Origin: Jimgerdemannia flammicorona
Lineage: Eukaryota
Assembly: GCA_003990765.1 (NCBI GenBank)
Contig: RBNJ01000083.1
Span: 1-42,948 of the forward strand
Length of the DNA: 42,948 nt
Direction of reading: 5' to 3'
Both the position numbers and the translations under genes were made by a program. How positions within the stretch are numbered: the first letter of the stretch is position 1; each line of letters starts with the position of its first letter. Below the pieces are notes generated by a model. It ran no database searches. It saw only the letters and a list, made by a program, of their open reading frames with translations, and was not told the origin of the DNA. Below, in pieces: positions 2,303 to 42,811 of the stretch.

Positions 2303-5300
2303 ATGTCATCCATATGTCGCCGCGCAACTGCCCTTCTGCTGCTGCTGTCGTGGCTGGCGCCGCAAGTCTTGGCACAGTCACTCACCAGGCGAGGTTTCGA
2401 CACTCTGCCCCAGAAGTTGTTCTACTTTCAAGATTCAGAGGTAAGCGTGCTGCTGTTTGTACTCGGTCTTCAGGGATCCCGAGAAAGGGAGTGCGCAGAG
2501 AGGCTTCGTGGAACACCATGGACACGACCGCCGCGCACACATTGGAAGTCATGACCCACCGGGCCCGGGCGCGACACGCTCGTCCTCTCGCTTGTGCTGG
2601 CCACTCAATGCCAAACACGCACGTTTCAGCGGCTAGCGATTTACACAACCCGTCCCACTCTTATCGCTTTTCCTTATCTTTCAGGTGATAATGTGGTTTG
2701 ACGCCAAAGCCCATAACGTATGGCGCTCTCCCGACCATGGCCAGACATGGGAAAAAGTTTCCACTGTACCCGGAGAAATTGCCATGCGACTTGAAGAACA
2801 TCCTTTCGATGCCAAAATAGTATGCTTGCCTCTCTCCCGTCTGGAGATTTGCTCGTGACTGCGTTGGCATATTCGTCTTCCGCCCTGTCTAATCTTCCTC
2901 GACTGCGCTATCCCATTCTCACCTAGGCTTACATCCTCACCGACAGTACGACCCATTACAAAACCGTGGACCAAGGTGCCACTTGGCAATCTTTCAATAC
3001 CCCCTTGCCAGCGACGGAGACATCCGTCTTCTCGTTCCATTCAGAGCGGAGCAACTACGTACTGTACACGGGAAGGAAGTGCGAAAAGAGCGGAGAGCGC
3101 GAGAGCGATTGCCACGATGAGGTTGGTTGCCCGATACTTTGTTAATGTTGAGAAAGTAAACGATAAGGCGGAGTTCAAGTGGCGATGAATAGGAGGTAAA
3201 TATATGTAGTGTTGTCGCTAACTCGACGCCACCTTGTTGAACAGACATACTACACCATCGACAACTTCGAGACCAACCCGAAACTCCTCCTTAAATACAC
3301 TGTTTCGTGTGCCTGGACCCGGTCGACTAAAGAATTCCAAGCGGTCGCTAACCGCGATATCATGTGCCTCGAATGGCCCAACAAAAACTCCGAATCCAAC
3401 CGCGACCTCGACTCTCTCCGTCTCGTCCAATCTGAAGATTTCTTCCAATCTAGCCAGCCCGTCCGTTTCGGCTTTAACGTAACCGGCATCGTCCGCTTCG
3501 GCGCCATTGACAAGTTCCTGGTAGCAGCCGCGAAAGATCCGGGCAACTCAGACAGCATGACCCTCTACGTCAGCGAGGACAGCAAGACTTGGTCCCGCGC
3601 CGTCTTCCCGACGAACTCGGTGTCTGTCCGCGAGAAGGCGTACACTATCCTGGAATCATCTCATTACGCCCTGTTTGTCGACGTGCTGACCAACCCGGAG
3701 GCCCCCTTCGGCACGCTCTACATCTCCAACTCGAAAGGCATCTACTTCACACGCTCGCTCAACAACACGAATCGCAACGAATACGGGATCGTTGACTTTG
3801 AGAAGATCCAAGGCGTAGAGGGCATCATGATCGCCAACATCGTCGATAACCCCGAGGACGTGCTGAGGAGCGACGAGAAACGCATTCTCACGCGCATGTC
3901 CTTCGACGACGGCAGCAAGTGGTCTTCGATCAAGAACGTCGTGAAAAATGATGGCGCGCCGTATCTCTGCAAGGGACAGGGCGAGGAATGCACGCTCCAC
4001 CTGCACTCTGTCACAAGCCCACACAACGAAGGAAACGTGTTCACGGCGAATGCGGCTGTGGGTTTAATCATGGGTGTGGGCAACGTCGGGCGCTCTCTGT
4101 TGAAGTACGATAGTTGTGATACGTTCTTATCGACGGATGGGGGACTGAATTGGAAAATGGTGATGGAGGGAGCGCACAAATATGAGTTTGGGGATACGGG
4201 CAGCGTGATAGTATTGGTTGATGATGAAAAGCCGACGGATCGTGTATTTTATAGCAAGGATCAGGGGAAGACTTGGTGAGGTTTATTTTTTCGTCCCTTC
4301 TTATTCCTATTATTGCGCACGATTTTTAATCCATTTGTAATTTTTGATAATGACAGGCAAAGTTTTAACCTTGGTGTGACCATGCAGTCGCGCATCCTGA
4401 CCTCCGATCCCGAATCTACTACCACCAAATTCCTCCTTGTCGGCACCACTGACTCTGGACAAGTACAAGCTATCCAACTCGACTTCTCCAACCTCTTCCC
4501 CCGTCAATGCGTTTTGGACCAATCCGACACCTCCAAGCAAGACTTCGAGAGGTGGTATGCTCGCGATCTCACTCCTAGCGCCGACTGCCTGATGGGTCAC
4601 GAGCAAGCCTTTTGGCGCCGGAAACCCGACGCCGATTGCTACGTCGGCCGTAAGTATAAATATCCGGTGGTCGAGACCAAGAATTGCCAATGCACGGTGC
4701 AGGACTTCGAGTGCGATTTCAACTTTGTCGAAAACGAGCAAGGCGAATGCGTGAGATCAGGACCGTTGGTGATCCCTGCGGGCCAGTGCGTCAACGGCGC
4801 AACCACGTTCGCAGGCTCGTCTGGCTACCGCAAGATCCCCGGTGACACATGCGAAGGCGGGCTAGAGCGAGACAACCCTGTCAACCAATCCTGTTCATTA
4901 CCTTTAGGCTCCTTAATGCAGGATCCCACAGCTCCGGACGATCAGAATATCGAGCATTACGAAAAGTACTTTGACAGCCAAATTCAACAATTCATGTACT
5001 TCAAGGAATCGTCTACCATCCTAATCCGCACCCAAACCGGGGAAATGTACCGCTCCGGCGACGAAGGCGTCAAGTGGGACAGAGTCCTCGAAGATAAGAG
5101 CCCGATCATCGGTTATTGGATGCACGAACACGACAACAAACGCGCCTACCTCTTCACGCGGGATCTATTCTTCGCCACGGTTGATCAAGGTGTCACTTGG
5201 GAGGAGATCAAACTCCCGTCGTCCATGCCTCCTGGCTCGCTCCCACTGGATAGCCATCCGACAGAATTCGATTGGCTCATCTTCATGGGGCAGGTTGGCT

Positions 5301-8300
5301 CGTACCAGAATGAGGCCTTCGTCTCGCTCGATCACGGTAAAAACTGGAAGTCCATTGCCACCTGGGTGACCAAGTGCATCTTCGGCCGAGACTCCAAGTT
5401 TGACGATGTTGAGAAGGAATCCATCTTCTGCACTGGGTTTAAGTATCCGAACGCCGAGCAGTCCGATAACCCTATTCAGCTCTTCAAAACCAACACTCAG
5501 GGGACCACCAAGGAGGTCTACTTCAATAACGTCGTGCAATTCTTCGTTGTTGAGGATTTCATGGCGGTGGCAACAGAGGTGAATGGCGCTTTGATGTTGT
5601 ATGTGAGCGTAGATGGGAAGACGTTCGCTGAGGCTCAGTTCCCGCCTACAGCGCAAATCGACCGTAATGTGGGTACATTCACGAGTGCAATTTCTTATTG
5701 GCTTTTGTCTGGTTGTACGTTTAAGTGAACCTTTGTTGTGGCATACTTGCAAGCTCACTACCGAACCTTCTTTGCTGTATGATATATATATGGACCGCCC
5801 TACCTGCTACTACCATGATAGACCTTCACAATCCTGCAATCCACCACCGGTTCCGTCTTCCTTAACGTTGAACGAAAGATGCCTTACGGCAACGAGTACG
5901 GCACGCTCTTCAAGTCGAACGAGAATGGTACCTTCTATCATCAAACCCTTGACAACACCAACAACGACGCCTCAGGCTTAGTCGATTTCGAGAAGATGCA
6001 GTGGATTGACGGTATCATCCTCGCTAACCAAGTGTCGAACACGGGCGAGCTGAACGGCGGTGGGGATGTAGCCAAGAAGATTCGAACGATGATCTCGTGG
6101 GATGATGGTGGGTAGATACGTTTTGGGTTGGGTTGGTTGGATGTGAGGGAGGAAGCGTGGGCGGGTGGAGGGGTTGGGGGCAGTTATGTTGTTGCAGTTG
6201 GAATTGATTGGAACAATTATAAGATGCCTTAATAGAGCATTACGACCAGATTTTACAATCCGTCGATATTAACTTTTTGTTTTATTTTTCTTTGCCGTAT
6301 TCTTCAGGCGGCAAATGGGAGAGGTTGAAGGCCCCGGCTGGCGCGTGCGATACTTCGGTAACTATGGGAACTATGAATTCATGAATAGCCCCTTGCAAAA
6401 TTATGCGACCATTTCATATCTCAAACTCTTTTCTGCTCTCAAATTGCCAGGCGGATTGCGGGCTCAACTTGCACAGCCGTACAAAGATCCATGGTCCTGG
6501 CGCAATCTTCACTGCGTCTGGCGCTCCAGGGCTGGCCGTTGGTGTTGGTAACACTGGGTCGTACCTTTTGCCCTACGAACAGGGTCAAACGTTCTTAACC
6601 CGTGACGCGGGTCATACCTGGACTCAGATCCGCGCGGGCGAGCATCTGTACGAGTTTGGTGACCACGGTTCTCTGATGGTTTTGGTCAACGATGAAGGAC
6701 CCACGAATGAGTTAGTGTAAGTATTTGGGACGGGACAACTTTTTCTTCGGGTGGTTGAGGTCTTTTAATGCCATTGGAAGAGAGGGCAATGGCGTGAGAA
6801 GGTCATTCCGGACACCCACGATGCACATATTCTGTAAGAGCCTCATCTATACCAACAAATAACGTCAAGCTCATTAATTGGGTAACCAATTCACGCGCTC
6901 TTTCAATGCAGGTATTCGTTGGATCCAGGCAATACCCCCTGGCGGACCTACAACTTCGCCAAAGACAAAGTGCGCGTTTCCACGCTGACGACAGAGCCCA
7001 GATCGACGAGCCTCAAATTCATATTGATCGGTCACACGATGAATTCGGACACGAAGCCCTCGCAGCAGGTGTTGATCACTATCGATCTTACCCCACTCGG
7101 CTACCGGACATGTGAGTAAAGTTGTAACACACGGATGTGTTATTTCGGTTTAAAGCCCTTCCAATAATATTGCTGTTTGTAATAGGTGATTTTTCCGAGA
7201 CGGATCAGGACAAGAACGACTTCGAGAAATGGACACCCAAGGATGATGACGGCGATGATGCATGTCTATTGGGCCGCCGTATGACCTATTGGCGTCGCAA
7301 GAAGGATCGTGTATGCTTTATCGGTAGCGCGGAACGAAAGGTGGAGCAGGAGAATTGCCCATGCAGAGATATTGACTTTGAATGGTACTACCTTTTTAAG
7401 ATTAACAATACGTATGCATTATTGAATACGAATTGAAACTGACAGCTATGATGCTTTATATTTGTTCATAAAGCGACTTTGGTTTCTGGCGCAACGAGAA
7501 TGGCGACTGTGTCCTTCACGGTCGCCATCCTGACCGGCCGGAGATATGTAACAAGGATCAGACATTCAATGGCCGCTCGGGTTACAAAAAAATATCGAGG
7601 AGCACGTGCAACGGTGGGGTGAATCTGGCCAAGCAGATAGACTGGAATTGCGATGAAGGTAAATATTTCGTTATGCGATGCAACGAACATGTCATTGCGT
7701 TTGTTTTCTGTTCTTTTTTTTATCCGATTGTATTACTAGGCAGGGATGGCAAGAGGCAATCTTTTCTAACCACTTCCACTGCACATTGAATTTGAAAATG
7801 CAGCTCTTGGTATCGAGTCTAAAAAAGTAAATCCGAATTGTGTTCCCTATCCTCTTTCTCTTGTACCTATTTGATGCCTTTACTCATATTCTTACTCGCA
7901 CGAACTATAGATGGTATTCAGCGAAGAGATTCGAGAGTACATATATTTTGACGGCACTGATGTAAGTTGCTGAGAATGCAATTACTTGTCATTTGTCTAC
8001 ACGTGATCTACGACGTCTGATGATGAGTATTTCCACGGGTTTCCAGTCGGTTATACTCCACACCGCTGATGGCAAAGTTTGGCAGAGCGACGACGATGGC
8101 TACTCATGGAGAAATTTGTTTAGCGATACACAAATCCTGGCGGTGATCCAGAATCCGCAAGCTAACGAAAGAGTATAAATATATGCTATTAATACCAGTT
8201 AGAAGTGATGACAATTGCCTTTGAGCAAATGATCTAAACAAGCAACCAATGAATATGATTCTGTAGGCCTATTTCATAACGAATGCGACGAAACACTATG

Positions 8301-10069
8301 TGACCACTGATAGAGGTCGCACCACATCGACGTTTGAGACGAAGCTTCCACCAATGTACAACTTGAACGGCGGTGGGATTCTGAGGTTCCACTCTGAAGA
8401 AAAAGATTGGCTTATCTACGGCGGCGAGGACAAATGCGACTCTCTCTTCTCACCGGACTGCCATGGCGAGGCCTTCTACTCGAAAGATAACGGTGGGTCC
8501 TGGAATTCACTCGGCACGTATGTTCACGCATGCCACTGGGGTCGAGATGGACGATTCAAGAGTAGCGATAAGGAGCTTGTCTTCTGCGAGCAATACTACG
8601 AGAAAGCTGGCGATCAGAGGTTATTTTATAGCACGAATCCGTTGCAGTACTTATCCAGCAATAACTATCTCGAGACAAAGAAGAGTCTTTTTGATAGTAT
8701 TGTTGGTGTCGCCCTTTTCGAACAGTATATGATTGTCGCAGAGGTAGGTTGCCGTAACACGCGGGTTCGGCGCATTTAAAAGTGAGAAGTCATTTCATAA
8801 AGATTACCGTCACTCTTCGATACAGCTTGTCGAGAATGATTCTAAGCTTAGGTTGTCGATCTCTCTCGACGGCGACACGTTCGCAGAGGCACAGTTCCCT
8901 CCAAACAGGAATCTCAAGAAGGAGGTTTGTTCAATCACATTTTAACGTTTAGTTTACATACCAATTCTAGCGAACATCGACGTTGAACCAAAGCACTTCA
9001 TGTATTTATTGATTCAGGCATACACTATCATGGAATCCGTCACCAGTTCTGTCTGGCTTCATGTCTCCACCAACACCAAATCCAAGCAAGAGTATGGTGT
9101 TATCTTCACGTCGAACTCGAATGGCACCTACTTTGGTGTGTCGCTCGAGGACGTCAATCGAAACTCGGATGGCATCGTGGATTTTGAGAAGATGCAAGGA
9201 ATTGAAGGCATTGCACTCGCTAATCAAGTGACCAATCCCCAGGAGGTTAACATGGGCAACTCCAAGAAGCTCAGGACGATGATCACCCTCGATGATGGTC
9301 GTAGCTGGAAGACCCTAACTAAGCCGGAACTTGGCCCGGATGGCAAAAAATATGATTGCTCAGTGGGTATTGCTTAGTTTTATCATAGCTTGTCTTCCGT
9401 TATGATAACAATATAAACTTATTGTCGAAAATGGATCTTGCGCGTATCCAGGATTGCACGCTCAACCTCCACAGCTACTCTGAACGTCGCAATCCCCGCG
9501 ACTTGTTCAGTCACTCTTCCGCCGTGGGTCTCATGGTTGCGGTGGGCAATGTCGGTCCGAGCCTAACGACGTACACTGATGGTGACACATTCTTGACCCG
9601 TGATGCTGGCAAGACATGGTTTGCCGTTCATGACCAGGCCCATTTGTGGGAATTTGGTGATCAAGGCGCGCTACTGATCATTGTAGATGACGAGGAGCCT
9701 ACTGATCATCTCATGTATGTATATACCTGAACGGGTGTGTTTGAAATCGACCTCGCATTTTTATTACCCGTTTCTTTTATTATCCGCTATTGTCGACATG
9801 GAACAACTACATCAATATCTGATATTTCTGCCATGTGCAAAATGCAGGTACACTACGGACGAGGGCAAATCCTGGAAGCAGTACACCTTTGTCAAGGCGG
9901 GCGACAACAAAGTCCGTGTCTCGGATATTATCACCCAACCAGACGGTACTAGCCAGAAATTTGTTTTGCTCGGTAGGGAACGGCTATCGGGGAAGCAGGT
10001 CGGGTATCATATCGACTTCAGTGGATTGCGTCTGGAAAAGTGTACGTATAGTATAAATCTTCACTCTCC

Positions 10070-10116
<47 letters not shown>

Positions 10117-11357
10117 GGCGTGCGGAATGGGAGCGAATTCCCTGCCAAAGAAATGATTGTTAACTGAATATTTGATTCGGTCGATATAACATCCAGGCAC
10201 TCAGGAAGATTTCGAACTGTGGAGCCCTGAGGACACGCGTGGGAATGCATGCTTGTTCGGCCGTGAGGTAACAAAGCCATACGAGTTCATGCACCGCTGG
10301 TTCTATCATCCCATAAACGCGGAATTGACAGATTCCTTGTTCTACCTAAATAGACCCGGTATTACCGCCGCAAGGAAAGAAAAAACTGCTATATTGGCGA
10401 AGATATCATAAAACGTCCACAGGTCGTGCGCAATTGTACTTGTGCCAAGGAAGATTACGAATGGTGAGCAGCACTCCGCGCGTTCAAACTGACACCGAAC
10501 CGATACGGAACCATGTTTTGTTACACTTCCATTGTTGTCGGTCCTCAATCATTCCAATATTTTGCTTTGCCAGCGACTACAATTATGTACGCGACGAAAA
10601 AGATCAAGAATGTAAGCTCTATCCGGGTGCAAAACCTCTCCAGCCTACGTGCCGAAATGGCGAGGAGTTCTTCTGGGAACCGACTGGGTGAGTGCTGTTG
10701 CTTTTTGGAAGGGGGAAACCAGATACGTAATGTGATCCCTCATCTAATGCGCATGAATGTTATTAATGGTAATAGCTACCGTAAAAAGCCGCTGTCGACC
10801 TGTGAGGATGGTAATGAATTAGACAAGGGTAAAAAGGTGTATTGCTCAGGTATAGCTGAACATATACTGATTTCGTGATTTCCGGAGAGCTACGTGGGTG
10901 ATAACGATTTTCCTTGTTCCCCGGAATTCCAGGCAAGGGCAGCTCAGGTGGCAACTGGGCAATATACTTGATGTACCCACTTGCGGCGGCCGGCATCATC
11001 TTTGGCCTGATGTATTATCGAAAAGCGAGACTTGGGTATGTACTTTTATTCTTACCTATTCCCTTCGATTTGCTACCGATATGTAACCCCCCTGTTTGGC
11101 ACTGCTCCTCTCTACACAGCCGCATCCGCCTGCCCGAAGCTTCCAGCAATGGCAACACGTCTTCGGTCTTCGGAAACATTCTGGGCTTCCTCACCGAGAT
11201 TCCCTTCTTCCTGGCAAGTGTTATCTCGAATATCCCGGTACCTCGTCGCCTACCTTCGCTGCCGAGCTTCTTTTCGAATTGGAGGAGGGGAGGTCCGCGA
11301 TATTCACAGCTGAATCAGGACGACCAACTGGATACGGATCTCAATTTGGACGAGTAA
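2303..11357 (+). CDS. VPS10: Vacuolar sorting receptor Vps10/sortilin family, about 25 exons, three tandem Vps10 + 10CC modules, TM helix and cytosolic tail
   Basis: Signal peptide MSSICRRATALLLLLSWLAPQVLA; many BNR/Asp-box motifs (S.D.G.TW); three VDFEK.Q.I.GI motifs (~3790, ~5980, ~9178); three Cys-rich 10CC blocks; TM WAIYLMYPLAAAGIIFGLMYY; tail YSQL..DD. GT-AG introns were traced by hand and keep the frame. Confidence 0.95.
10072..10115. repeat. Poly(T) tract (~44 nt) in a Vps10 intron
   Basis: Homopolymer run inside the intron that starts at 10042. Confidence 0.95.
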
Positions 11358-11645: not shown

Positions 11646-12997
11646 ATGGGTAAAGACTACTATGCTATCCTCGATCTCAAAAAGAACGCCGACGATGATG
11701 CCATCAAAAAGGCTTACAGGAAGCAAGGCAAGCATTCTGGTATCACATATTTGTGCACACGCACCAACGCGTGATAACCAACACAAGTCTTACCTTCACG
11801 GCTCCCAAACCAAATAGCTCTAAAGTGGCATCCCGACCGCAACAAAGACAACGTTGAGACCGCTAAACGAAAATTCCAGGATGTTGGTGAGGCATTTGAA
11901 GTTCTGAGTGACCCAAACAAGCGCACCATTTATGATCAGTATGGTGAAGAAGGCCTCAAGGGAGTTCCACCTCAAGGTGCTGAGCCTGGCGGTGCCGCTG
12001 GCGCCTTCCCAGGCGGTTTCGCGAATTTCCCTGGCGGTGCCACTTTTACCTTCAGCTCGGGCGGACCAGGTGGATCTCGATTCCAACCCTTCCAGCCGAG
12101 AGACGCAGACGATATCTTTAAGTAATGAGCCCACATTTCACTTATATTATTGCGTCATTTGTACGTAAGTGGTCATTTCATTAACTGACGCTTGACCGTT
12201 TGTACAGAACATTCTTCGCTTCATTTGGCGGAGGGCAAGGGCAAGGGCAAGGGCAAGGGCAAGGGCAAGGGCAAGGGCAAGGGCAAGGGCATGGCATGAG
12301 TATGGGTATGGGTATGGGTATGGATGATGGTGAATTTGGTATACCAGGCGGGTTTGGCGGTATGTTCGGCGGTGGCATTCCGCGTGGTGGTGCGCCGGGC
12401 GGTGCTCGAGGTGGGCCTTCGTTCCGTAATGCACAGCAACAAGACGCTACCTCCAAACCGCCTGCGGTGAAGCGACCGCTTCCCTGTACTCTTGAAGAGC
12501 TGTATGCGGGTACCACCAAACGGCTCAAGGTCACGCGTCGCCTCATGGATGGAGCATCAGGTAAACCGATGGCGACGGACAAAGTGCTTACAATCAATGT
12601 CAAACCCGGATGGAAGGCTGGCACCAAGATTCGCTTCCCGAACGAAGGTGACGAGTTGCCGGATGGGACGACCCAGGATATCGAATTCGTACTTGAGGAG
12701 AAACCTCATCCAGTCTTCAAACGAGATGGCGACAATTTGCATATGACCATCGACCTTTCTCTTTTGGAGGCTCTCACGGGGTTCCAAAAATCGATCAAGA
12801 CGCTTGACGAGCGGAGCCTTAGCGTATCGAACGCGAACACCATTGTTCAACCAGGTGACGAGTCCCGTGTTCAGGGCGAAGGTATACCGAATTCAAAAAC
12901 TGGCAAGAAGGGGGACCTTGTCATCAAGTATAATGTCAAATTCCCATCTCAGCTAACGCCGGCTCAGAAGGAGGGTTTGAAAAAGGTGCTGGGCTGA
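11646..12997 (+). CDS. SIS1: Type II Hsp40/DnaJ co-chaperone (Sis1/DNAJB-like), 3 exons: 11646-11727, 11818-12121, 12208-12997
   Basis: [35 protein letters not shown]-domain, G/F and G/M linker, C-terminal [16 protein letters not shown]...[12 protein letters not shown]...[12 protein letters not shown], no zinc finger. Confidence 0.95.
12233..12286 (+). repeat. Coding microsatellite (GGGCAA)x9 encoding (GQ)9
   Basis: Perfect hexamer array in the G/F-G/M linker of the DnaJ gene. Confidence 0.95.
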
Positions 12998-13325
12998 TAA
13001 GACACTTTATAATCAGAAATGGGGGAGGGGGGGGTGACGGGGAAGAACTTCATTGAACGGTTCGTACCACGTATGGTGGTTTCGATTACTTTTTTGATTG
13101 AAATTTGGACCTATTAGTTTTCCGTACCGTTGGGGCAATCAGTATCGGGAAATCAGCTCACTACCGTTCAATGATTTGTGGCTAATGATGGCTAACGGTC
13201 CCTCTTGGTTATTTGATAATTGATGGATTGATGGTCAATGTACATGTCTTGTCTTCATTGCTCCATTTCATCTTGTCTTGCCTTGTTCCTTTTCGTCCTG
13301 AGATACAATAAAAATCCTCTCCCAA

Positions 13326-14138
13326 ATGACTCTTCTTTCTGTCCATCAAGCATCTAAACATCTCGGAGTCTCCTCCAGGACATTTCGTTGCTGGCACGCT
13401 CAAAGCCATTGAGGATGTCCTTCCCACGTCTTCCACCCAAACCTCCATCCAATTACACTTCACCCGACCTCTGGATCAGCCTGTGGCTATACCTATGTGC
13501 ATGTTTCAAGCCCAAAACAGCAGCAGGACCTCAAATGACAAAAATGGCACCTCCAGCAGCTCTACCCATCTTATTGCATTATTATCAATGTCACCAGTGG
13601 CATCAATTTTAAAAGACCTGGTCTTAAAATCTTATTGAAACTCTCATGTCAAGGGTTGCTAACAGAGGTAATACTTATCTTCTACTACTTACACACCTGT
13701 ATGAATATAATATTCATATCTCTTTCAACTTGATAGATCATGGTTGTCCACCATGACTGACTTTGTCACTTTACCTATAATCTCCTCAAACACATCTTCA
13801 TCCTCAATAGCACCAAGGTCATTATGGTTTATGCAGAGGATGACACATCGAACTCTGTAGCTCAAGAACTATCTGAGGACATTCTTGCAATCAATACTAT
13901 CTTCATCTACTAGATACAAGATTGAAGAGTAGTAAAAAACTGATAGTACTACAGGGACTAGCAGTAACAGCAAGGACAAGAGGAAGGTCAGGATAAGTCT
14001 GGTGTTTGTGAGGAAGAAGGACAACATATACAGTTTAATGAGAGTGATGAAGAGTAAGATATAGAGAGGTAGTAGATAGATTGTATTAAGCAAACTGAGT
14101 TGTGCAATAGTTATGAAAACTCAAGTTTTCATCATTGA
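13326..14138 (+). pseudogene. tnpA: IS607-family serine recombinase (TnpA) relic 1 with an intron at 13668-13736; 3' end approximate
   Basis: One frame reads MTLLSVHQASKHLGVSSRTFRCW (MerR-type HTH)...GYTYVHVSSPKQQQDLK*Q (cf. YARVSS.KQ..DL.RQ)...SGINFKRPGLKILL...GLLTE|IMVVHHD*LCHF (cf. VVAHRDRLCRF)...QELSEDILAINTIFI; stops arise mostly from transitions. Confidence 0.85.
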
Positions 14139-14546
14139 TTAGATTCAATCTACTGTTTTTATTAGCTCTGATATAACATGTTATAGACAAGTCCAGAAAA
14201 ATAGACAAATGAATTATATATACTCAGAACTGTATATTGTTCTTCTTCTTGACTGAGTTAAATAAGGATGCTTTTCTGTATAATTTTATATATATGTCTT
14301 ATATGTTTCTATATACAATTTTGCATTATGTCATACTATTTTCAATATAAATAATTAAAATTATAAGCTCTATACAAATTAACTATATCTCCTGAGGCCA
14401 GAATCCTAACACCCCAAGGACAATCCTTTTTCTCAACTCTTCTCTCCTATGAATCTATCTACTGATAAGGTCTTCATGATCATAATATCTTCTTACAATC
14501 TAGCTCCACCTCTACCTCTATCTCTATCTCTACCTCCACCTCCACC

Positions 14547-14957
14547 TAGTACTCTCAAATGAGTCAAATCAATTCGAATCGAATCGAATTGAGGGTTAAA
14601 CAAATCGAATCGAATTGGGGATTTTTCAATTTGAATCAATTTGAATCAAATCAAAAGTTGAATCAAATTGAGGGTCTAATTCAAATCCTAATTTTCAAAA
14701 TGCAATAACTCAGCATAAACTCATCCAAATCTAACATACTTTAGCTTGTTAGAATCACATTAATACGGTGAATCTAATAAGCTAAAATATGTTAAATTTG
14801 GATGAGTTTTCGTCGAGTTATTACATTTTGAAAATTAAGGTTTAAATCAAACTTACCTTTGATTCAATTTGAATCAAATCAAATTGGACCCTTGATTCGA
14901 TCAAATCGAATCAAGTTTGGGCCAAATTCAATTTGATTTGATTCATTGAGAGCACTA
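14547..14957. mobile_element. hAT-type MITE, copy 1
   Basis: TIRs TAGTACTCTCAA / TTGAGAGCACTA, 8-bp TSD CCTCCACC (14539-14546, 14958-14965), internal palindrome centred near 14763, near-identical to 39078-39460. Confidence 0.93.
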
Positions 14958-15291
14958 CCTCCACCTTCACCTCAATCTTTACTTCAATCTTAACCTCTAC
15001 CTTAACTTTAACCTCAACCTCCACCTCTATCTCTACCTCTACCTTAATCTCCACCTCTACTCCCATCTTAATCTCCAACTATAGTCCAGTCAAAGAGATA
15101 ATCAGACTTGCTATTTTTCATACACTTACTTGCCTTTTGGTATTTTTATATATTTTTACAAGTCTTGTTTAATTTATTCATATGTTTTACCTGCTATTTT
15201 TTTTTGTCTCCTGTTTAAATAATATTTTCATTCTTATATCTTTAAAAATCAACTATATTATATCTATATCAGTAACTTTAAAATAATTGAT

Positions 15292-15387
15292 TATACTAAG
15301 TTCAAGGTTTTTAAACTAAAGATAAAATGTAAAGAGCTCAGCCTAATAATCAATAGTATAAAGAAGGTATTAATTGACAGGCTATAG
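15292..15387 (+). pseudogene. SAP DNA-binding domain relic, part of a Pro-rich cargo gene spanning roughly 14400-15400
   Basis: YTKFKVFKLKIKCKELSLIINSIKKVLIDRL fits the SAP pattern L.V.ELK..CK..GL...G.K..LI.RL once transitions are reversed; (CCACCT)-like Pro-coding repeats lie upstream. Confidence 0.55.
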
Positions 15388-15639
15388 GACTTCTATAACA
15401 AAATGCTACAAACTTTATATTAAATAGTCAGTACTTCCAAAGTTTCAATATATATAGAAGGTTACTATTATTTTTTAATTTTTTAATATATATGAAATAT
15501 CAAATATGATATTACTAATCCAATTAACAGCTTATAAAAAAATAATTATTTCATTTATATACTTATATATCACTTTTTATTCTCAGTTATAAGTAAGTTT
15601 TCAGCCCAAACCAGTGGAAGAGACTCATCCTTAGAGCCT

Positions 15640-16074
15640 TACTAATACTCTTATATCAAGGAATAGTTATATAAGTGATGCTTTATAATGTTATTCTACT
15701 GTTGACATTCTTATTTAGCTATGAATATCATATTGACATCACTTTTGATTTGATGGATTGTGGTTGCCCACTAAGACCAACTTTATTACTTCATCAATAA
15801 TACTAAGATTATTATAGTATATTGAAAGGATGATATATCATCCTTTATATTTATTATCAATAAACTTACTCAGAGTATCTTCAAACAAGGATAATGACAA
15901 TGTTCAGCAGAAAACTGAAGGTGATGAAGAGAAGCAGAAGTATAAGATAGAGGTAAGGCTTACTTATGCTTGAAAGAAGTAGAAAGTAAAGAGAATAATG
16001 AAGAGTCTGAAGATACAGATCTATCTGAATATAAAGCAGAAGAAGCTGATGAAGAGATAGATAAGATATGCTAG
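15640..16074 (+). pseudogene. tnpA: IS607-family TnpA relic 2 (3' half) with an intron at 15675-15756 and an acidic tail overlapping the TnpB start
   Basis: YQGIVI*|IVVAH*DQLYYF...SAEN*R...EENNEESEDTDLSEYKAEEADEEIDKIC*-like tail; intron shares position and 3' sequence with relic 1. Confidence 0.7.
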
Positions 16075-17263
16075 ACTTATGTATAACATAGTCATTCAGG
16101 CATTTTAAGGTAAAGATCACTATACTACCTTTGCATATTTCTATACTCTGCTACATCAGTAGATCAATGATAGTATATGGGCTTTCATGACTGAAGTTTT
16201 ATATAATGTACTCAATAAGATGATGAAGAAAGTGATCCAAGCATGTGACCTCATTCAGCAGAGGAATCGAGAAGCATGAGAATCAGAATAGTGATATTAA
16301 TATTGACTCTTATTTCACTATTATAAGGAACTATATCAAATGATCACAATATGTTAGCAAAACTATTAAGAGTATCTTAAGTTCTATCCTCACATTCTTT
16401 ATATATATGTCATCACTACCAATGACCCTTCACATTCTCACTATAAGAATCTGACCACATATCCACCTCTTTATTATAAGCACTATAAGAAGAAATACAA
16501 TTAACTAAATCTAGAAAAATGGGTCAGCAATGATTTGAAGCTGATGTAGGATCAACAGTAGAGGTAATAGACCTTTATCTGGATCTATAAGAAGAATAGA
16601 GTAGTCTTCTTTAAGAACCAAGCAAAGGATCCTGATATCTATTCTCTAGATCTAAGTGTCTATACATTCCTGACATAGTACTCTTCTATCTATAGTTGTG
16701 GTAAGATAGATACAAAGAATGCACAAAGACTTGTTCACCTCTGTCTCATCCTCAATAATCTCATCTCCCAGACTGCTAAAGCCCCTACTCAAAAGCATAA
16801 TTCCATATACTGTACCCAGACTCATATATAGCAGTGAATCTGCAATCTTGTCAATGAGTACTACTGCAAGACTGTGCTCTAGCTCATCCATACCTTTGAT
16901 GTCATTATCATTCCTTCTTTCAATGATAGCCAGATAGCCATAAGGCACTATCAAAAGATCACCAGTAGGACAGTCCATTTGATGATGACATAGTCATATA
17001 GAAGGTTCAGAGAGAGGCTTTTGTCAAAGGCTGAAGAGTATAGCAAATAAGTATGTATGATCTCAGAGATATATACAAGCAAGACCTGCAATTGGTATGG
17101 GTGGATCAATCATAAGCTGGGTGGGAAGAAGGTATTCCATTGTCATGGGTGTGGCTTAAATATCAATAGAGACATCAATGGTGCATGTAGGATCTTTCTT
17201 CAGGCTTTATTGAATGATTGCATAGAAGGTAAGATATTCACATTTGACAAATTGATAATGTAA
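15998..17263 (+). pseudogene. tnpB: TnpB/Fanzor2 RNA-guided nuclease pseudogene (421 codons, single frame, multiple nonsense codons)
   Basis: MKSLKIQIYLNIKQKKLMKR*IRYARLMYN (OrfB HTH), WAFMTEVLYN, DIYSLDLSVYTFLT (RuvC-I, Asp at 16649), ICNLVNEYYCKTVL*LIHTFDVIIIP, TSRTVHLMMT*SYRRFRERLLSKA, SEIYTSKTCNWYG...FHCHGCGLNINRDINGA (zinc ribbon, RuvC-III). Confidence 0.92.
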
Positions 17264-17365
17264 GAAGGTTTTGGATGGCTTTTTGCAAGGTTGAATCTAA
17301 TGATGCCTTTATTTTTCTACATTACATAATTAGGGATCTAACGGAAAACATAGCTGCGACGACAA
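17150..17365 (+). ncRNA. Predicted omegaRNA region (scaffold to the right end at 17344, guide from 17345); 5' limit is a guess
   Basis: Position only: TnpB/Fanzor omegaRNAs overlap the ORF 3' end and element right end and take the guide from flanking DNA. No structure was confirmed. Confidence 0.35.
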
Positions 17366-17754
17366 TGGCAACAGCGCCAGGGTGGGGGGGGGGAAATGCG
17401 CGCCTGTGAGTTTGCCAGGCTTTGTTGGGTGGGACTGTCCTTAAGGGCACCAGTTGGGCGTGAACAGGCAGTGTTGGCTAGTAATGGCCAATGTTGTCTA
17501 TCAGTGTCCGACTCAATCCATCCGTATAATTGTGTCTAAAGTAGTTGACCACCATTGTTTTAGTTCCCTATAAATTGCTGTCTCGTTACCTTTATGCCAG
17601 TGCCCTTAAGGGGCGCGGTTCCCTAAAAGGCAAGCTTAGACATGGCAACCAGACCAACGGGCGCTGTTTCTTTGTTACCAGCGACCCTCTTTATCATTAC
17701 CAGACCCTTCTCCTAGTTCAACCTCCTAGCTCAACCCCCGACGCTCCTACTCTT

Positions 17755-31746: not shown

Positions 31747-32162
31747 CAGGGTGGTGTAAATAATTGAGCAAAATTTTGGACTGCGGCTGCTGACAACTTA
31801 GAGGTCTTGAATTTTAAATTTTGAAATCAAATGAAATATAAAAAAGAATTTTATAGAAGTTGTTTATTTATAAATATGGAATAATTTTATTTTTTTATTT
31901 TTAATTTGAGCTCAGTAGAGTTATAAAAAGAGAAATACTTATAAAGTATTATAATTATAATTATTAATAATTATAATCTTAATAAAATATATATTAAAAT
32001 AATAATAATAATAATAAGTTTATATTAGTATTTTAATAAAACTAATTTATCATTAATTTATTATGATTGAAATTTTAAAATTAATCTTATTTTAAGTTAA
32101 TAATTAGTTTATAGTCTAATAATATATCTTTTAACTTATTAAATATTTTTTACAAAATAATA

Positions 32163-32404
32163 ATAACCCTTAAGCTGTAATACAGGTAAATTTGTCTGCA
32201 AAAAAAAATAATATATAATTTTTATTTAAAAAAAATTTTTTACTAATAATATAAAGTTAAAAAAAAATCTAAAATATTTTTTAAAAATATTTTTCAAAAA
32301 AAAATTTTTTTAATACTTTTACTAATAAATATAAGATAAAAAAAAAAAAAAAAAAAAAAAAAAGAGGGCCCGTAAAAATCCTTACTACATAAACCTAAAA
32401 AAAT

Positions 32405-32443
<39 letters not shown>

Positions 32444-33373
32444 CTAAAAAAAAAAAACTAAAAAAAAAAAAAAAAAAAAAAAAAGATGAGCCTGTGAAAT
32501 CCTTACTACATAGACCCTATGAAATCTAAAATACAAAAAGAATAACTAAGATAGAAGGAGTTTCTCTAGAAGAAATAACTTAAGAAATAAATAAAAAAAT
32601 CAGTGAAATTCCAGAGAACCAAGACTCAATAAGGATAAAAAGAAGTAGCTCTATAAAAAAAGATTATGCTTTATTTACAAGAAGGTAGGACACATCTCTT
32701 TCAAATGTCTTAAGAAGAGAAACAAATTAGATAAATCTAGTAACTAGAACATCACTATTATTGGAGAAGGCCCAGGAAAGAAAAACTCTGAGAATATCAT
32801 TAGAGTATAAAAGATATAATACAAGACTACCATCCCCACTAAGGCCCATCTTATAGATATAGAATATAATCTCTACAGTAGCCAGGATCTTACAATACTA
32901 CTAAGTAGTGCTCCTAATGAAAACTTTAAATTGAATTAAGATCTAATTCAATTTAATTTGAGTTTTAATTTGAATAAAATCAAGTTACAATTCAAATTGA
33001 ATTCAAAGTTTGAATTTTGAATTAAATTCAAAATTCAATTTAAAATTCAAATCTAAATATAGTAATTCAAAACTCCCATATAATATAACTCACAACAATA
33101 ATATATATACACTCTTCTTAGCAATTAAGCAATAGGGTTACATAACCCTTAGACTATATATAACACAGGCAAATTTGCCTGCAAAAAAAAATAATATATA
33201 ATTTTTATTTAAAAAAATTTTTTTACTAATAAATATATATATAATAAAAAAAAATATTAAAAATATTAAAAAATTAATTTTTTGAAAAAAAAATTTTATT
33301 AAAAATTTATAATAAATATATAGTCAAAAAAAAAATTAAAAATTTAAAAATTTTTGCAGGCAAATTTGCCTGC
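32163..33373. repeat. Duplicated AT-rich element ends (about 32163-32330 and 33141-33373)
   Basis: ATAACCCTTA..ACAGG(T/C)AAATTTG(T/C)CTGCAAAAAAAAATAATATATAATTTTTATTTAAAAAAA occurs twice; palindrome GCAGGCAAATTTGCCTGC at 33356-33373. Confidence 0.75.
32906..33070 (+). mobile_element. Unpaired hAT-type terminus
   Basis: TAGTGCTCCTAA followed by TTGAAT/ATTCAA-rich subterminal repeats like those of the MITEs; no partner TIR found in the window. Confidence 0.6.
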
Positions 33374-33549
33374 AAAAATGAACAGCCAATTGGATAAGAG
33401 AGTATTATTGAAAATTTGAAATATTTCAAATTTGGGTGCGAAATCTGAAATATTTTGAATTTGGTTGTGAAATTTGAAAATATTTCAAAAAAAAACTGTG
33501 TCCTTGAAGTAAAAAATTTCTCAACTTTATATTCTTGTAACCTAAAATA

Positions 33550-34645
33550 CCATTGGCTGGAATCGACAATAGGGCTGAGAGGATGGGGCTTAGATAGATG
33601 AGAGATCTAGTAGACAGTATAATGGGTCTAGTGGTGGCCCCATTACTCAAGAAGTTGATCTTGGAGTTCACAGTTACTTTATACTTCAGAGGCTTAGCAG
33701 TAATAGCAAGAATGGTACTAGGGCTAATTGCTAAGTAGGTGGCTAGAGCTATATTCATGAAGTTCTTAAAGGGATTGGAAGGAGTGGAGGTTGGCTTTAA
33801 GGAGGCTGGACTATTGGAGAAAGTGCTGAAGACTGAGCTGACTATTGGGGAGGTGTGTATTCTAATGATGTACTGCTTGAGATGAGACCCCAGAGTAGTA
33901 CAGTTACTAGTAAAAGAGGTGCCCATGGTGACTGCTGAGGAGATGAGAAGAAGAATCAAGAAAGTCATGGCTGAGTATAGGGAGGTGGTTGATATTGAAT
34001 TCTGGGTCTAGGAGGGGACCTTATTCCAGACTGAGGATATTGATGTTCAGATTTGGTTAGCAGAGAAGGAAGCTACTGGAAAGGCTAGAGACTGGTCTTT
34101 GGGGTGGGGGAGGGGGATTGCTGGGAGGACTTAAGATCTCGGCTTGTAGGTGGAGTGAGTGATAGTTGGCTCACTGTAGGGTGGGTATTAGCAGTGTGGG
34201 TGGGACTGGCTGGACATTGGCTTTTTGTATTTGAGGAGGGACAGCAGATAGGGCTACAGGAGAAGGTATTATGGTGAGAGAAGTTGTTGGGGGATCTGCT
34301 GACTAGATGGTGGATGGATTGGAGTTCTTAGGGGGAGTGATGCCACAGTTTGGTAGTAAGGATCTGTGAACAGAGTAGTGGGAGAGTAGAGATAGTGTTA
34401 GACAAAGTAGCCTTTTGTCAGATAAGGGTAGGGGAGGGGGGCCCCCCCTAGGGGGATTAGATAGGGGGTAGATTCAATGTATTTATATGGAATAGATAGG
34501 CATAATAAAGGAAGGAAGTCCAAGTGACTATAAAAAAAAAAAAAAAAAAAAAAATACCTCAAAAGTGGCAAGGTATGTTGAAGATAAGCTACAAGAATTG
34601 GAGCCTTTTTTGAGCTGCAAGAAATAGAGAGTAAGGGAATAAAAC
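33550..34645 (+). mobile_element. Decayed non-LTR retrotransposon-like fragment (ORF1-like), host of the hAT insertion
   Basis: Stop-ridden frame VVQLLVKEVPMVTAEEMRRRIKKVMAEYREVVDIEFW; downstream poly(A)-containing units continue after 42755. Confidence 0.4.
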
Positions 34646-35529
34646 AGAGAGAGTAGTACTTCAAACAAGTCAATTTGAATCAAATCCAGATTTAATTTGC
34701 CACATAATGGTTTGATCCAAATCTCAAATTCAAAGCCATCTGAATCAACTTGGATTAATCTGAATTACTCTATCTGAATTACCCCATCTGAACCACCCCA
34801 TCTGAATTACTTAATCTGAATTACTCAATCTGAATTACTCAATCTGAATCACTTAATCTAAATTACTCAATCTGAATCCTTTAATTTGAATCCTCCAATT
34901 TGAATCCTCCAATTCAAATCCTCTAATTCAAATCCTCTAATTCAAATTCTTCAATCTGAATCCTCATCCAAATCCTTCAACTGAATCCTCTAATCTAAAT
35001 TCTCTATATGACTCATATGCTAGATATATTTATATATACAATATATATATATGTAAATATATATATGTATATGCAAATATACAAATACATATGTCAACAG
35101 ATCAGTCTTTAACAGTTCATAGTACTGATAATGCTTCAAGTTAAATATCTCTGATAGTTCTACACCTTTTATGCAATTCTCACTCCAAAATCTGGCAACA
35201 TTATGCTAAGATAGGAGATGATATTGTTTATAATTATTGTAGGTAAAAAATTAAGATACACCTATTCATATAACTGACACTTTTTGTTTAACATATATAT
35301 GATACTATTTCATCTACTCCCATAAACTGCACCAGCCAAAAGTTTAAAATATTTGGTGGTATAACTTCAAATATACATATATCAATATATAAAAGACAAG
35401 TATTCTGATAAAATCAAAAAGAATACAGAGACAAATAAAATCAACATCCAAGCTATGGTGGGTACATTTATCCAATTGTCTAACCATTTCTATACCAATA
35501 ACCTCATTTAATCAAAAATATTTAGCCAT

Positions 35530-38364
35530 ACTCTTTGGCAGAATTTCAAAATCAGCTCATTTGCTAGATTGTATGCACAGACCAGCCATTTACAACCATT
35601 AAGAGTGATCAATTGCATAGTATCTTTGGTCTCCTCAAGCATGATTTATATTTGCTAAATACTGATACTATTCACAAAGATGTCCTGGAGGCCTATAGGA
35701 AAGAGCATAACAATCTCTACCAGATACTTCAGATAAAATAAGAGCAGTACCATGATCTTTGCAAGCTTAATTATATATATTTTTTTATAAAGAGCTTACA
35801 AATTTAACCTCATATTCAATAAGTAGAATTTTGTAGGCAAAATTTTATTTATGATCAACACATGGATATTCCCCAATATAATTTTATTTCTAAGTATTAC
35901 TGATCATTAGATTGACCTCAATTGGTAGCTTAAATCTCTCACCCTTGACTTTGTCAAACTTGCTAGCCCTCATTCTGGAGACAACATTACAGATGTTTTT
36001 ATTAGTTATATCCAGGAGCTTGGAATCACAACTAAGGTAAAAAAGAAAGGCTTGCTGTCAGATTGGTATTTTGAGAGAGATCTTAAAACAAAATAGATTT
36101 TATTGGTTATTTATTTTTACATAAATTTGCTAACCAAATATTTCAAGTACAGATTTTGGCCATTATGATAGACAATGCTACAAATAACTCAATGTTTTTC
36201 CAAGTTTTAGCAGCCAACCTCAAATAGGAAAATATGGCCTTCAGTACAGAAAGCTGCCATATATACATAATACCAGACCCACATACTGAACCTCACTATT
36301 TAGAACTATCTTATATATATAGACAAAACATCTGAGAGAGGAGGGGCCCTGAGTATAATTTCCAAGCTATACAAACTAGTTGTATTGGTCTGATTGTCTC
36401 TATAACAATAAGATAAATTTGTTATATAGTATAGGGTAATCAGTTTAGCTCTAAAAGAGCTTATATTGGACATCTGTATATATTGAAACTCAATATTTAC
36501 AATGATCCAGCATGTGCTGGAGTTTGCTATGGTATGTGTTCTTTTTTCTTTGGTCAGCTGAAGCAACTTATTTCAGATGATTGAAGATTTTTTTTTTTAA
36601 AAAAAAACAAAAAACAAAAAAAGTCAATAGATTCAATAGTAGCTGTCAACAAGGAAATATAGGACAAGGCTCTAGGTGAAAGTAAGTAGGATGTACTTAG
36701 GAATATTATCAGAGTTTTGGAAGTAAGTAGTGATTATTCTGGCTCTATACTTGTTTGTCTGCCTCTATATAATATAATACCTCACCACATATAACTGTCA
36801 GTGTTTTGATGATTGTATGAAGGATATAGTCAAACAAATAACCTCAACAATAAGCTCTGCAATAACAGTATACAACCTTCTAATTGATTGGCTAGAAGAT
36901 AAGCTCAAGGATAGGCTAGAGAGTTGTGGTAATTTATGGTTAAGCCTAGATCAAAGAGATATGGAGGTTGCTCTAAGCAAGCTCAGAAAATACTGCTCCA
37001 AAACAGATACTACCATATACTCAATCAGTACAGGTATGTCGACATATAGTCATTATCTCTTTTAAAATAGAGAAACTCTTGCAAAAACTCACTCTCTTTT
37101 CTCTGAATAGTGCTGGATCTATACTTAAAGCTACAATACTATAAAGATCAGAGCTGGGAGCAGTACTTCATTGAGAGAATTAAGTAGATCTCTTTCTCCA
37201 CTACCTTACTGGTTACAATAGTTTGGTAGACAACCTTTTGAGTCCACTTTTCATAATTATTACCCCCTCTATCTTGGGTTGGTTTGCTGTACTTGTTGTA
37301 GAGCAGTAAGAGGGAGGTAATGGTGATGAGTTGTCTCTTTATTGGTATCAGATCAGTGTTTTCTCCACTTTTTCACAGTTTCTGATGTCTTTGGATATAT
37401 CTGGAGTATATTTGTTTTGATACAGTACCTTCTTTCTTTTGTTGTCACTAACAAGATACTGTCTCAGTATGTCTTGGGCTATATAGGGAGTTGGCCAATC
37501 TTAGGCATCAAGTGCTCAGTATAGATTACCTGCAGGTCCTCAGTATCTGTAGTAGGGCCCTCTGGTTTTGGTAAGCTTTCTGGTGAGTATAGTTCTGGTA
37601 TAGGTGACTGCTTTTCAGGTGTTATTGAGATGGGAGGGGAGATAGCCATCATAGATAAGAGAAAGGGTGATAATGGTGAACCAGTAGAGTACCAGACTGG
37701 GGGCAGTTACATATTGGGGCTGGAGTGGGTGCTGCTTTAGTGGGGCCTTTTGATTGGTACAGTGTGGTTAGGTAGTAGATATCACTCTCAACTTCTTTTG
37801 GCAATTTAGCAGGTTGGGCTCTGGTTATTAGGAGGAGTCAGAGAGTCCAAGACTACCTATTTCAGGCATCTTAGCTACACTCAACTAGAACTAGGAGCTG
37901 ATTAGCAATGTGATTGAGGCCTACAGGCTTGAGTAGTGGGGTATTGAGGGTCTCCTCCCATCTCACATATAAGTCCTTTACTCATCTTAACTGAGAGAAC
38001 CAGGCTCTATCTACTGTGTTGTACTTTGATGAGGGTTTTTCTTTGCCTGTCATTCTCTTTGGAGTGGCAGGGGCTATTCTATTTAGCTTAGGCATAGTCT
38101 TATATATATGTTGGGTTCTTAGATATATACTTTCAGTCATTGGCATATGGCTGGGTTTCCCCTGGTGATAGAGAGAGCATAGTGTACAGAATGAGATGTG
38201 GGTCAACATAGACCCTGCTGCACCTGATATAGTCAAGCTGCTGGACAATAGCTAGCCTAGATTAATGGAGAGGCAGTGCTTAATGGGTGGTGGGAGAGGG
38301 TTTTGGTCTATCTAGTCTAGGTTTCTTTCCAATAAAAATCCATGGAACATTGAGTCTATTAATA

Positions 38365-38397
<33 letters not shown>

Positions 38398-38890
38398 TCA
38401 AGTAGGCTATAATTGAAGTATACTGGAAAAACTATGCACCACTATAAGGTTCCAGCCAAAGTCTGGATGAATATGCCAAGGGATCCCTCCTATCCCACAT
38501 TTACTTTAGTAGAAAGAGGAAGAGGGAGCTGTTAGTGAAAGAGCTGTCATCAATAGATGAACTTATCATTTATCTTGCCAGCAACTATATGATCCTGCTG
38601 GAGGACATGGAGGTGCTTAACTGGTTTGTCAGACAGGTGTTGGGCCAATTTAATTCACCAATCTAACCACCACTCTACCTACTAGAGTATACAGCTGTAT
38701 CAAATGGACTTCTTCAGCCTATGTAGTATAGCTCAGAACTACCTGGTGATTTCTGCCTCCAGTACTTCCATTGAGCAGGTGTTCTCAGATGGGGTGGACC
38801 TTGTTGCCCCAAAGAGGTGTATACTGAATACTGAGATAATCTGGGTATATATGTATATATCTGAAGTCTTGGTGAAGCTTGGGCTGCTAA
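35530..38890 (+). pseudogene. hAT transposase relic with introns, interrupted by a LINE fragment
   Basis: ILFMINTWIFPN..FLSITDH*ID.NW*LKSLTLDF..LASPHSGDNI; IMIDNATNN; LILDICIY*NSIFTMIQ (cf. TRWNST); IAQNYLVISASSTSIEQVFS (hATC dimerisation domain). Confidence 0.88.
37188..38390 (+). mobile_element. 5'-truncated non-LTR retroelement insertion with poly(A) tail
   Basis: Poly(A) 38364-38390; 15-bp TSD GAGAGAATTAAGTAG (37173-37187) / GAGAAAATCAAGTAG (38391-38405) differing by two transitions; transposase-like sequence resumes afterwards. Confidence 0.8.
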
Positions 38891-39029
38891 AATTCAGTGA
38901 GTCTTAGGAATTCATAGATAAGTTAGTTGGCTTTATGGAATATTTAATACCTTTCAAAAATAAAAGAAAAAAAAACCTGAGAACTCAGCCCAGAGTTTGT
39001 AGCCCAAGTGGGGTAGTGGTCAGTGGAGT

Positions 39030-40000: not shown

Positions 40001-40374
40001 AGTCTGAGTCTGGGTCAGAGGGTACTTCTAGTGGTTAGAGGGTGCTTCTGGCAATCAAAGAGTACTTCTGGCAGTCAGAGGATATTTCTAACAATTAGAG
40101 GGTACTTCTGGCAGTTGAAGTCTACTACAGATTTGGACCCCATTACCAGTTTGGGTCCCATGGACACCCTGGTCCTGTGCCATAGCACCACACTAGTAGC
40201 ACTACAAGAGCAGAGCCAAGGGATCAGTAGGGCCCAGCATAATGACTAAACTAGTACTACAGAAGAGGTACCTGGCTACCAGCCTAATCTGTATAAAATG
40301 ACTGCTGAACCCTTATGAAAGATTGTCTAACCCTTACAAAAGATTGCCTAATTCTCATGAAAGATTGCCTAACC

Positions 40375-42764: not shown

Positions 42765-42811
<47 letters not shown>

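Follow-up and report, generated by a model that had tools for sequence, protein, structure and literature searches.

What is the stop-ridden reading frame that lies at 15998-17263, on the plus strand, of a stretch of 42,948 nucleotides (nt) from Jimgerdemannia flammicorona (GenBank assembly GCA_003990765.1, contig RBNJ01000083.1; this whole stretch is called here the window), and what ruined it? An earlier note had proposed that its 421 codons form a full-length, frameshift-free pseudogene of the Fanzor2 nuclease family whose ancestor could be resurrected. Our analysis indicates that the locus is, with high probability, the nuclease gene of a dead, hypermutated copy of a eukaryotic IS607-type transposon, this being the best explanation of the evidence as a whole. 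Homology, collinearity, the direction of the mutations, the anatomy of the element and the conservation of an RNA structure carry this reading, and each of them was directly observed. The locus can make no protein now, and it is a dead member of an already known Fanzor2 kind.

Direct reading confirms that the ATG at 15998, the RuvC-I aspartate codon at 16649 and the stop that closes at 17263 share one frame of 421 codons, which ends with TAA (17261-17263) and contains 21 internal stops (11 TAG, 6 TAA and 4 TGA). The openness of this frame is no evidence in itself: with its terminal codon it carries 22 stops, against 15 to 40 in the remaining five frames of the stretch, one antisense frame having just 15. 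The reality of the feature is therefore established by homology. Pfam PF07282 (OrfB zinc-ribbon, TNB) matches the frame at 1.5e-15, NCBIfam TnpB models match below their cut-offs, and among solved structures the mimivirus Fanzor2 9b0l is closest in sequence (1.5e-12). A phmmer search of 1.84 billion representatives returned 4552 proteins at E <= 0.001, with single stretches running over query residues 2-405, 7-408 and 2-403. Consistent with this, a hidden Markov model (HMM) built from 13 relatives gave one match in the window, at 16016-17224, as a single domain in one frame (E 8.1e-106); the same model, run over six frames, revealed no second Fanzor copy in the window, the rest not falling below E 0.5. 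Finally, tblastn with the spliced protein of an intact element (L002) produced one high-scoring segment pair, in which residues 2-423 align to 15959-17224 over 422 columns with zero gaps and 48.6% identity. The homology to TnpB and Fanzor2 proteins is thus full-length and includes the TNB domain, and the gap-free alignment, the uninterrupted phmmer stretches and the one-frame HMM match together bear out the absence of frameshifts.

The intact element used as reference (L002, 2694 nt) encodes a TnpA of 258 amino acids (aa) with one GT..AG intron and a Fanzor2 gene that overlaps the end of TnpA and yields 425 aa once two GT..AG introns are removed; a conserved right end of about 90 nt comes after the Fanzor2 stop, and TnpA, Fanzor2 and right end are packed into about 2.3 kilobases (kb). 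As the tblastn alignment with this element reaches 15959, the ancestral frame probably started upstream of 15998. With this probable N-terminal extension the pseudogene spans 15956-17263 (plus strand): AGG at 15956 stands opposite the ATG of the reference, stops occur at 15971 and 15980, and the segment pair remains free of gaps. The ATG at 15998, taken as the start in the earlier note, is indeed present and in frame, but to judge from the alignment it is probably an internal methionine, 14 codons downstream of the ancestral start. Within the 14-codon extension, the reference protein carries a basic RKKRK stretch, which may be a nuclear localisation signal; N-terminal signals are among the Fanzor features described in PMC10530073.

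A scan of metagenome contigs found 80 loci, and the closest relatives (58-66% identity) are small intron-bearing metagenome elements. Intact relatives measure 387, 421 and 425 aa, in agreement with the compact family of about 420 aa that had been suggested, and some relatives keep the complete D/E/D triad together with all four cysteines. Prokaryote genomes (cyanobacteria, Dehalococcoidia, Synergistales and others) contain more distant relatives, 38-52% identical across the C-terminal 200 residues. Introns are polymorphic in the Fanzor2 family: one follows residue 40 in L002 and L011, another follows residue 241 in L002, L011, L009 and L008, and the second intron position is read unbroken in the window and in L001, L004, L005, L006, L007 and L022. 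The introns of the reference element lie at 1184-1262 and 1866-2002 of its contig.

Does the damaged frame still show the marks of a Fanzor? The published fingerprint (PMC10711439) combines DPG at RuvC-I (Yoon et al. 2023) with a glutamate six residues before the first CxxC, which replaces the canonical glutamate about 50 residues upstream; for ApmFz2 (mimivirus L79, PDB 9b0l), PMC11832414 names Asp324, Glu467 and Asp501 as the triad and describes a displacement of the glutamate by 50 residues. The RuvC-I motif of the window copy (16649-16657, plus strand) retains its aspartate (codon 218, GAT at 16649-16651, in SLDLSVYTF) and reads DLS in place of DPG; DPG is found in 10 of 11 related loci and in the reference, and NPG in L055. 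The closest relatives have, letter for letter, the ancestral LDPGVRTF that had been guessed at this position. The canonical RuvC-II site reads FDVIIIPSFN, without a glutamate, and Glu357 (GAG at 17066, in SEIYTSKTC) stands six residues ahead of the first zinc-ribbon pair (feature 17066-17098, plus strand); the observation that DVIIIPSF occupies the usual RuvC-II position while this glutamate is kept was correct, and the shift is that of the published fingerprint. The first pair is reduced to C..Y (Cys at 17087, Tyr at 17096). The second pair and RuvC-III (17141-17173, plus strand) are preserved as CHGC (17141 and 17150) and NRDING, whose Asp392 (GAC at 17171) falls within the 4-8 residues past the second CxxC expected for the RD motif. 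The ribbon, CNWY...CHGC, thus keeps three of its four cysteines, one having become tyrosine; among related loci the first CxxC is present in 11 of 11 and the second in 10 of 10 with data. An HMMER alignment places Glu357 and Asp392 of the window opposite Glu467 and Asp501 of ApmFz2, and the D and G of DPG, the glutamate and RD are invariant across an alignment of 61 relatives. The published Fanzor regular expression fits the spliced L002 protein, P0002, P0007, P0009, P0010, P0059 and 101 of 155 relatives, many of which are fragments or bear insertions. Because DPG was lost by decay, the claim made here is one of descent from the Fanzor2 family and not of present function.

The fold was assessed on an intact 387-aa relative (P0010) and not on the pseudogene itself. 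Its AlphaFold2 model (predicted local distance difference test score 91.9, predicted template modelling score 0.85) has the TnpB/Fanzor2 fold that had been put forward as a check: Foldseek ranks ApmFz2 9b0l first (E 2.9e-19, template modelling (TM) score 0.71), then TnpB 8h1j, with Fanzor1 8gkh distant (E 1.3e-5, TM 0.39).

An unbroken frame could also mean a live gene whose stops are read through, by a reassigned genetic code or by programmed readthrough, and the unbroken frame is the sole point in favour of this idea. Against it, all three stop codons are used in the frame, other frames have as many stops or fewer, motif residues are ruined (DPG to DLS, cysteine to tyrosine) and the neighbouring genes are long open reading frames (ORFs) under the standard code. 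We consider a live gene so improbable that it can practically be set aside.

What carried the gene? The decayed element, whose ends are approximate, spans 13320-17525 (plus strand), the extent of its similarity to a short metagenome element (L001), and measures 4.2 kb against about 2.3 kb for the reference. Its upstream part contains a serine-recombinase TnpA pseudogene (copy A, 13326-13940, plus strand), in which 5 exonic stops occur and a 69-nt GT..AG intron (13668-13736) has been retained. The IS607 transposase model NF033518 of NCBIfam matches 13326-14000 (E 1.2e-15, below its cut-off), the IS607-type catalytic domains 6dgc, 3ilx and 3lhf of PDB match at 1e-5 to 1e-6, and tblastn aligns residues 1-199 of the reference TnpA (E 1e-47). 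The gene order is that of the intact reference: its matches fall in sequence on 13325-13943 (TnpA), on 15923-16074, 16073-16680 and 16678-17216 (the three Fanzor2 exons, here without introns) and on 17398-17539 (the right end). The carrier is thus of IS607 type, with a serine-recombinase TnpA.

The short element L001 (1453 nt, the contig of database protein P0002) matches window 13320-13403 (82%), directly followed by 16463-17204 (62%) and by 17399-17525 (86%). As it joins the start of TnpA to Fanzor2, both ends seen in the window belong to one element family. It is itself, over positions 1-1453, an internally deleted element in which the initial 84 nt of TnpA are fused to the C-terminal two thirds of Fanzor2, probably a non-autonomous derivative. 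On the left, similarity is lost some 8 nt ahead of the TnpA start codon, which places the end within about 8 nt of this ATG; on the right, similarity to L001 stops at 17525, just past CCATCCGT, and the four sequences (window, L001, L002 and L003) diverge immediately after.

The extra length of the element, 4.2 kb rather than 2.3 kb, is explained by a doubled 3' half of TnpA and an insert of about 1.6 kb. The duplication, of 0.4 kb, has its first copy at 13615-14050 (plus strand, from the TnpA 3' half to the Fanzor start) and its second at 15620-16010 (plus strand), a remnant of the TnpA C-terminus that overlaps the Fanzor start in a different frame; 15757-16071 matches TnpA residues 130-258. 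Blastn pairs 13623-13781 with 15630-15801 (65%, E 7.6e-14), and a transition-tolerant alignment gives z = 16.6 relative to shuffles. The duplicated portion is the TnpA 3' half only. Separately, 13960-14530 had been considered as a second Fanzor N-terminus and was rejected (alignment z of 0.3 and -0.2 relative to shuffles, and no HMM match). The roughly 1.6 kb between the two copies consist of a palindrome resembling a miniature inverted-repeat transposable element (MITE), a CT-rich repeat and AT-rich DNA.

The same anatomy bears on whether the locus might descend from a giant-virus fragment that had integrated, and not from a cellular transposon. The closest solved relative is a mimivirus protein, giant-virus metagenome bins contain relatives at up to 50% identity, and PMC10530073 describes Fanzor2 as enriched in such viruses. 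The 4.2-kb TnpA-Fanzor2 unit is, however, flanked by ordinary eukaryotic genes (Vps10/sortilin, DnaJ), its closest relatives (58-66%) are small elements with spliceosomal-type introns, and no other viral gene appeared when 13.2-16.2 kb and 31.8-42.9 kb were scanned with Pfam in six frames: 13201-16200 gave nothing besides weak Resolvase and HTH matches, and 31801-42948 gave no family at E <= 0.001. A viral origin is accordingly very unlikely; eukaryotic-type flanking genes and GT..AG introns in the relatives both indicate a eukaryotic host for the transposon.

Downstream of the nuclease frame lies a structured right-end RNA, a candidate omega/reRNA scaffold (17396-17525, plus strand), which is 86% identical to L001 and much less damaged than the ORF. 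The segment 17396-17545 folds with a minimum free energy of -54.2 kcal/mol (z -3.0), and only 1 of 200 shuffles was as stable. When the window is folded jointly with L001, L002 and L003, the consensus has 42 pairs, and compensatory changes occur in 4 of these. The four sequences served to build a covariance model (R1), which has 58 matches in 81 sources; 55 of the 80 loci carry one, in every case at the 3' end of the ORF and on its strand. In the model alignment 88.4% of the cells are paired, against 68.0% for shuffles and 32-45% for slid partners, and 37 of the 42 pairs are changed on both sides. Rfam at its gathering thresholds gave no match, and ARAGORN no tRNA. We infer that the right-end RNA is the guide scaffold, in which case the guide would presumably begin at 17526, as the limit of similarity suggests.

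Within the window the covariance model has its main match at 17396-17536; a second, weak site lies at 17177-17252, and a hairpin on the minus strand is also matched. The second site is a hypermutated copy, inside the ORF, of the 5' part of the scaffold (plus strand, R1 score 21.4 bits, E 0.003). In ten close loci, L002 and L003 among them, the model overlaps the last 55 nt or so of the ORF, and only in the window and L001 are these nucleotides doubled, once in the ORF and again 80-133 nt downstream, where they head the RNA module (17177-17252 and 17396-17470 in the window, 1040-1110 and 1199-1260 in L001). One copy of the duplicated 55 nt or so retains the protein reading and the other retains the RNA pairing, and a lineage-specific spacer (17264-17395, plus strand) separates the ORF from the RNA module. 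In this lineage, the duplication may have uncoupled the scaffold from the Fanzor2 ORF; as the RNA module is about three times less altered than the ORF, it could still be transcribed and serve, in trans, intact Fanzor2 copies elsewhere in the genome, a suggestion that we regard as unlikely. As a side observation, the C-terminal 50 residues or so of P0002 are the translated RNA region of L001, an annotation artefact.

Which process inactivated the element? Sites were taken as conserved when at least four reference sequences agreed to at least 75%, which was the case for 671 of 1275. The window is changed at 203 of the 671: 120 changes (59%) are C>T or G>A, 30 (15%) are the reverse transitions and 53 (26%) are transversions. 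Subjected to the same test, eight of ten references show 9-37% C>T/G>A, and the other two, L005 and L055, reach 64% and 71%, so that the same kind of hypermutation has struck this Fanzor2 family more than once. Both are AT-rich metagenome copies (guanine-plus-cytosine content (GC) 0.31-0.32) with 3 and 9 stops. At all 23 in-frame stops of the aligned part of the window (21 plus 2 in the extension), relatives have arginine, glutamine, tryptophan or another residue reachable by such C>T/G>A transitions. The core of the ORF, compared with L001, has 134 C/G-to-T/A changes, 18 reverse ones and 102 transversions. The statement that the lesions are almost all C>T/G>A therefore holds for the stops (23 of 23) and is overstated elsewhere, given the 59% at conserved sites.

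Reversal of these transitions had been proposed as a way back to the ancestor. Of 217 residue differences from the reference protein, 135 can be reached by undoing C>T/G>A, compared with 20 in an opposite-direction control, and identity rises from 48.6% to at most 80.6%, L001 and L002 being 71.9% alike. Without sister copies, however, the reversal is ambiguous at every T and A, and 80.6% is a ceiling; recovery by consensus, as the earlier note envisaged it, would depend on such copies.

The context of the changes leaves two processes to be weighed. Ancestral C was lost at 58% of CpG, 48% of CpA, 31% of CpC and 28% of CpT sites. The observed-to-expected CpG ratio is 0.00-0.03 at 15-17 kb, relative to about 1 in the flanking genes, with normal GpC; counted per 100 nt, CpG is wholly missing from about 13500 to about 17300 apart from the MITE, which keeps 10. 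The CpG-free tract ends near 17330 and is sharply bounded, at about 13.5 and 17.33 kb. As the MITE keeps its CpGs, it was probably inserted after the hypermutation. At its edges the element is 82% and 86% identical to L001 and retains CpGs, with 7 and 10 C/G-to-T/A changes versus 4 and 2 reverse ones; we estimate, from the GC content of L001, that about one eighth of C/G sites were altered at the edges and about one third in the core.

One explanation of this pattern is the slow decay of a silenced, cytosine-methylated repeat by spontaneous deamination of 5-methylcytosine and neutral drift, with no episode of hypermutation. CpG is the most affected context and is fully erased, the classical CpA-type indices of repeat-induced point mutation (RIP) are negative, transversions (26%) and reverse transitions (15%) accompany the directional changes, and a second AT-rich island at 32-43 kb is likewise free of CpG. 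Neutral decay would, however, normally have added indels, and there are none in 422 codons at about 35% substitutions; CpA, CpC and CpT are altered too (28-48%), the boundaries are sharp, and the MITE inside the tract retains its CpGs. Slow decay is accordingly a less likely account, although one that keeps appreciable weight.

The other process, which we favour because 422 codons passed without an indel and all CpN contexts were affected, is an episodic, RIP-like genome-defence event. The element resembles a target of fungal RIP in its dense directional C>T/G>A changes (120 against 30 at conserved sites, 134 against 18 relative to L001), its sharp edges, its many stops, its lack of indels and the presence of a duplication in the region; it differs in having no preference for CpA-to-TpA, in its negative classical indices and in its less altered edges. 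The only duplicated DNA visible in the element is the 0.4-kb internal duplication. Several observations count against the reading of a dead, hypermutated transposon copy as it stands here: the element edges are altered about three times less than the core, which RIP of a whole-element duplicate would not obviously yield; the classical RIP thresholds are not reached (TpA/ApT 0.86-1.10, and (CpA+TpG)/(ApC+GpT) not depleted); 41% of the conserved-site changes fall outside the C>T/G>A class, which points to ordinary divergence from the references mixed in; transversions relative to L001 amount to about 14% in the ORF core; the close relatives are all metagenome contigs without taxonomy; and the alignment behind the RNA pair counts was fitted to the covariance model.

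These observations suggest the following history. The intact element would have been moved by its serine recombinase TnpA, and its Fanzor2, of about 390-425 aa, would have been an RNA-guided endonuclease with the DPG aspartate, a glutamate displaced to a position six residues ahead of the zinc ribbon and the RD aspartate; the structured 3' RNA would have supplied the guide through a tail reading into the flank. A rearrangement may then have brought about 1.6 kb of AT-rich DNA and the 0.4-kb duplication between TnpA and Fanzor2. Directional C-to-T and G-to-A hypermutation would have followed over about 13.5-17.3 kb, removing all CpG and affecting every CpN context, and would have left 23 stops in Fanzor2, DLS for DPG and a tyrosine for one zinc cysteine, with zero indels. 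Finally, the MITE would have been inserted. The order of these events is our reading of the overlapping traces.

Among known systems, the IS607-type Fanzor2 ApmFz2 is the closest match in both sequence and fold, and it shares the family features (DPG aspartate, glutamate six before the first CxxC, RD aspartate, C4 zinc ribbon), an IS607 TnpA upstream of the gene and a structured RNA at the 3' end. The window copy differs from it in being dead, in belonging to a family of 387-425 aa (versus 520) without the long N-terminal domain of ApmFz2, in having intron-bearing relatives and in the separation of the RNA module from the ORF in its lineage. Bacterial "pro-Fanzor" or IS607 TnpB proteins (such as ISXfa1 and the cyanobacterial, Dehalococcoidia and Synergistales copies) show 40-52% identity across the C-terminal 200 residues and have the DPG and shifted-glutamate fingerprint as described in PMC10711439, whereas the window copy lies among eukaryotic genes, and in its closest relatives the gene is interrupted by GT..AG introns and the protein begins with a basic stretch. 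Fanzor1 (SpuFz1, PDB 8gkh) belongs to the same superfamily and has the shifted glutamate; it is a far weaker fold match, is larger and resides on non-IS607 transposons. In the library of papers that was searched, nothing joined Fanzor with repeat-induced point mutation, and nothing relevant turned up on Fanzor pseudogenes and ancestral reconstruction.

The surroundings of the element can be described briefly. Ordinary intron-split eukaryotic genes occupy 3209-10163 and 12200-12997, of Vps10/sortilin type and with a DnaJ C-terminal-domain gene carrying a (GQ)n run. The MITE-like palindromic insert (14533-14958, without assigned strand) matches its own reverse complement and has an 88% copy at 39065-39450 (blastn to 39445, E 2.6e-115); it sits in a CT-rich repeat with a 12-nt period (14496-14555 and 14945-15094). 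The second AT-rich island extends over 32000-42948 (GC 0.20-0.44, observed-to-expected CpG 0.00-0.25), and G-runs occur at 13023-13036 and 17383-17392. No target-adjacent motif was derivable for the window element.

Resurrection remains a reasonable idea, since the frame is collinear with its relatives and the damage is largely directional. Intact relatives with the D/E/D triad, four cysteines and their own RNA nevertheless exist, so that the proposed cleavage assay needs no reconstruction and reviving the window copy would add little. Compact genome editors of eukaryotic origin are being looked for among the Fanzor2 nucleases, and to this search the locus itself contributes just a dead copy. 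What is gained is a short Fanzor2 family (387-425 aa) of which intact natural members exist, a model of the right-end RNA of this family that covariance supports, and an example of host C-to-T hypermutation inactivating a transposon that encodes an RNA-guided nuclease.

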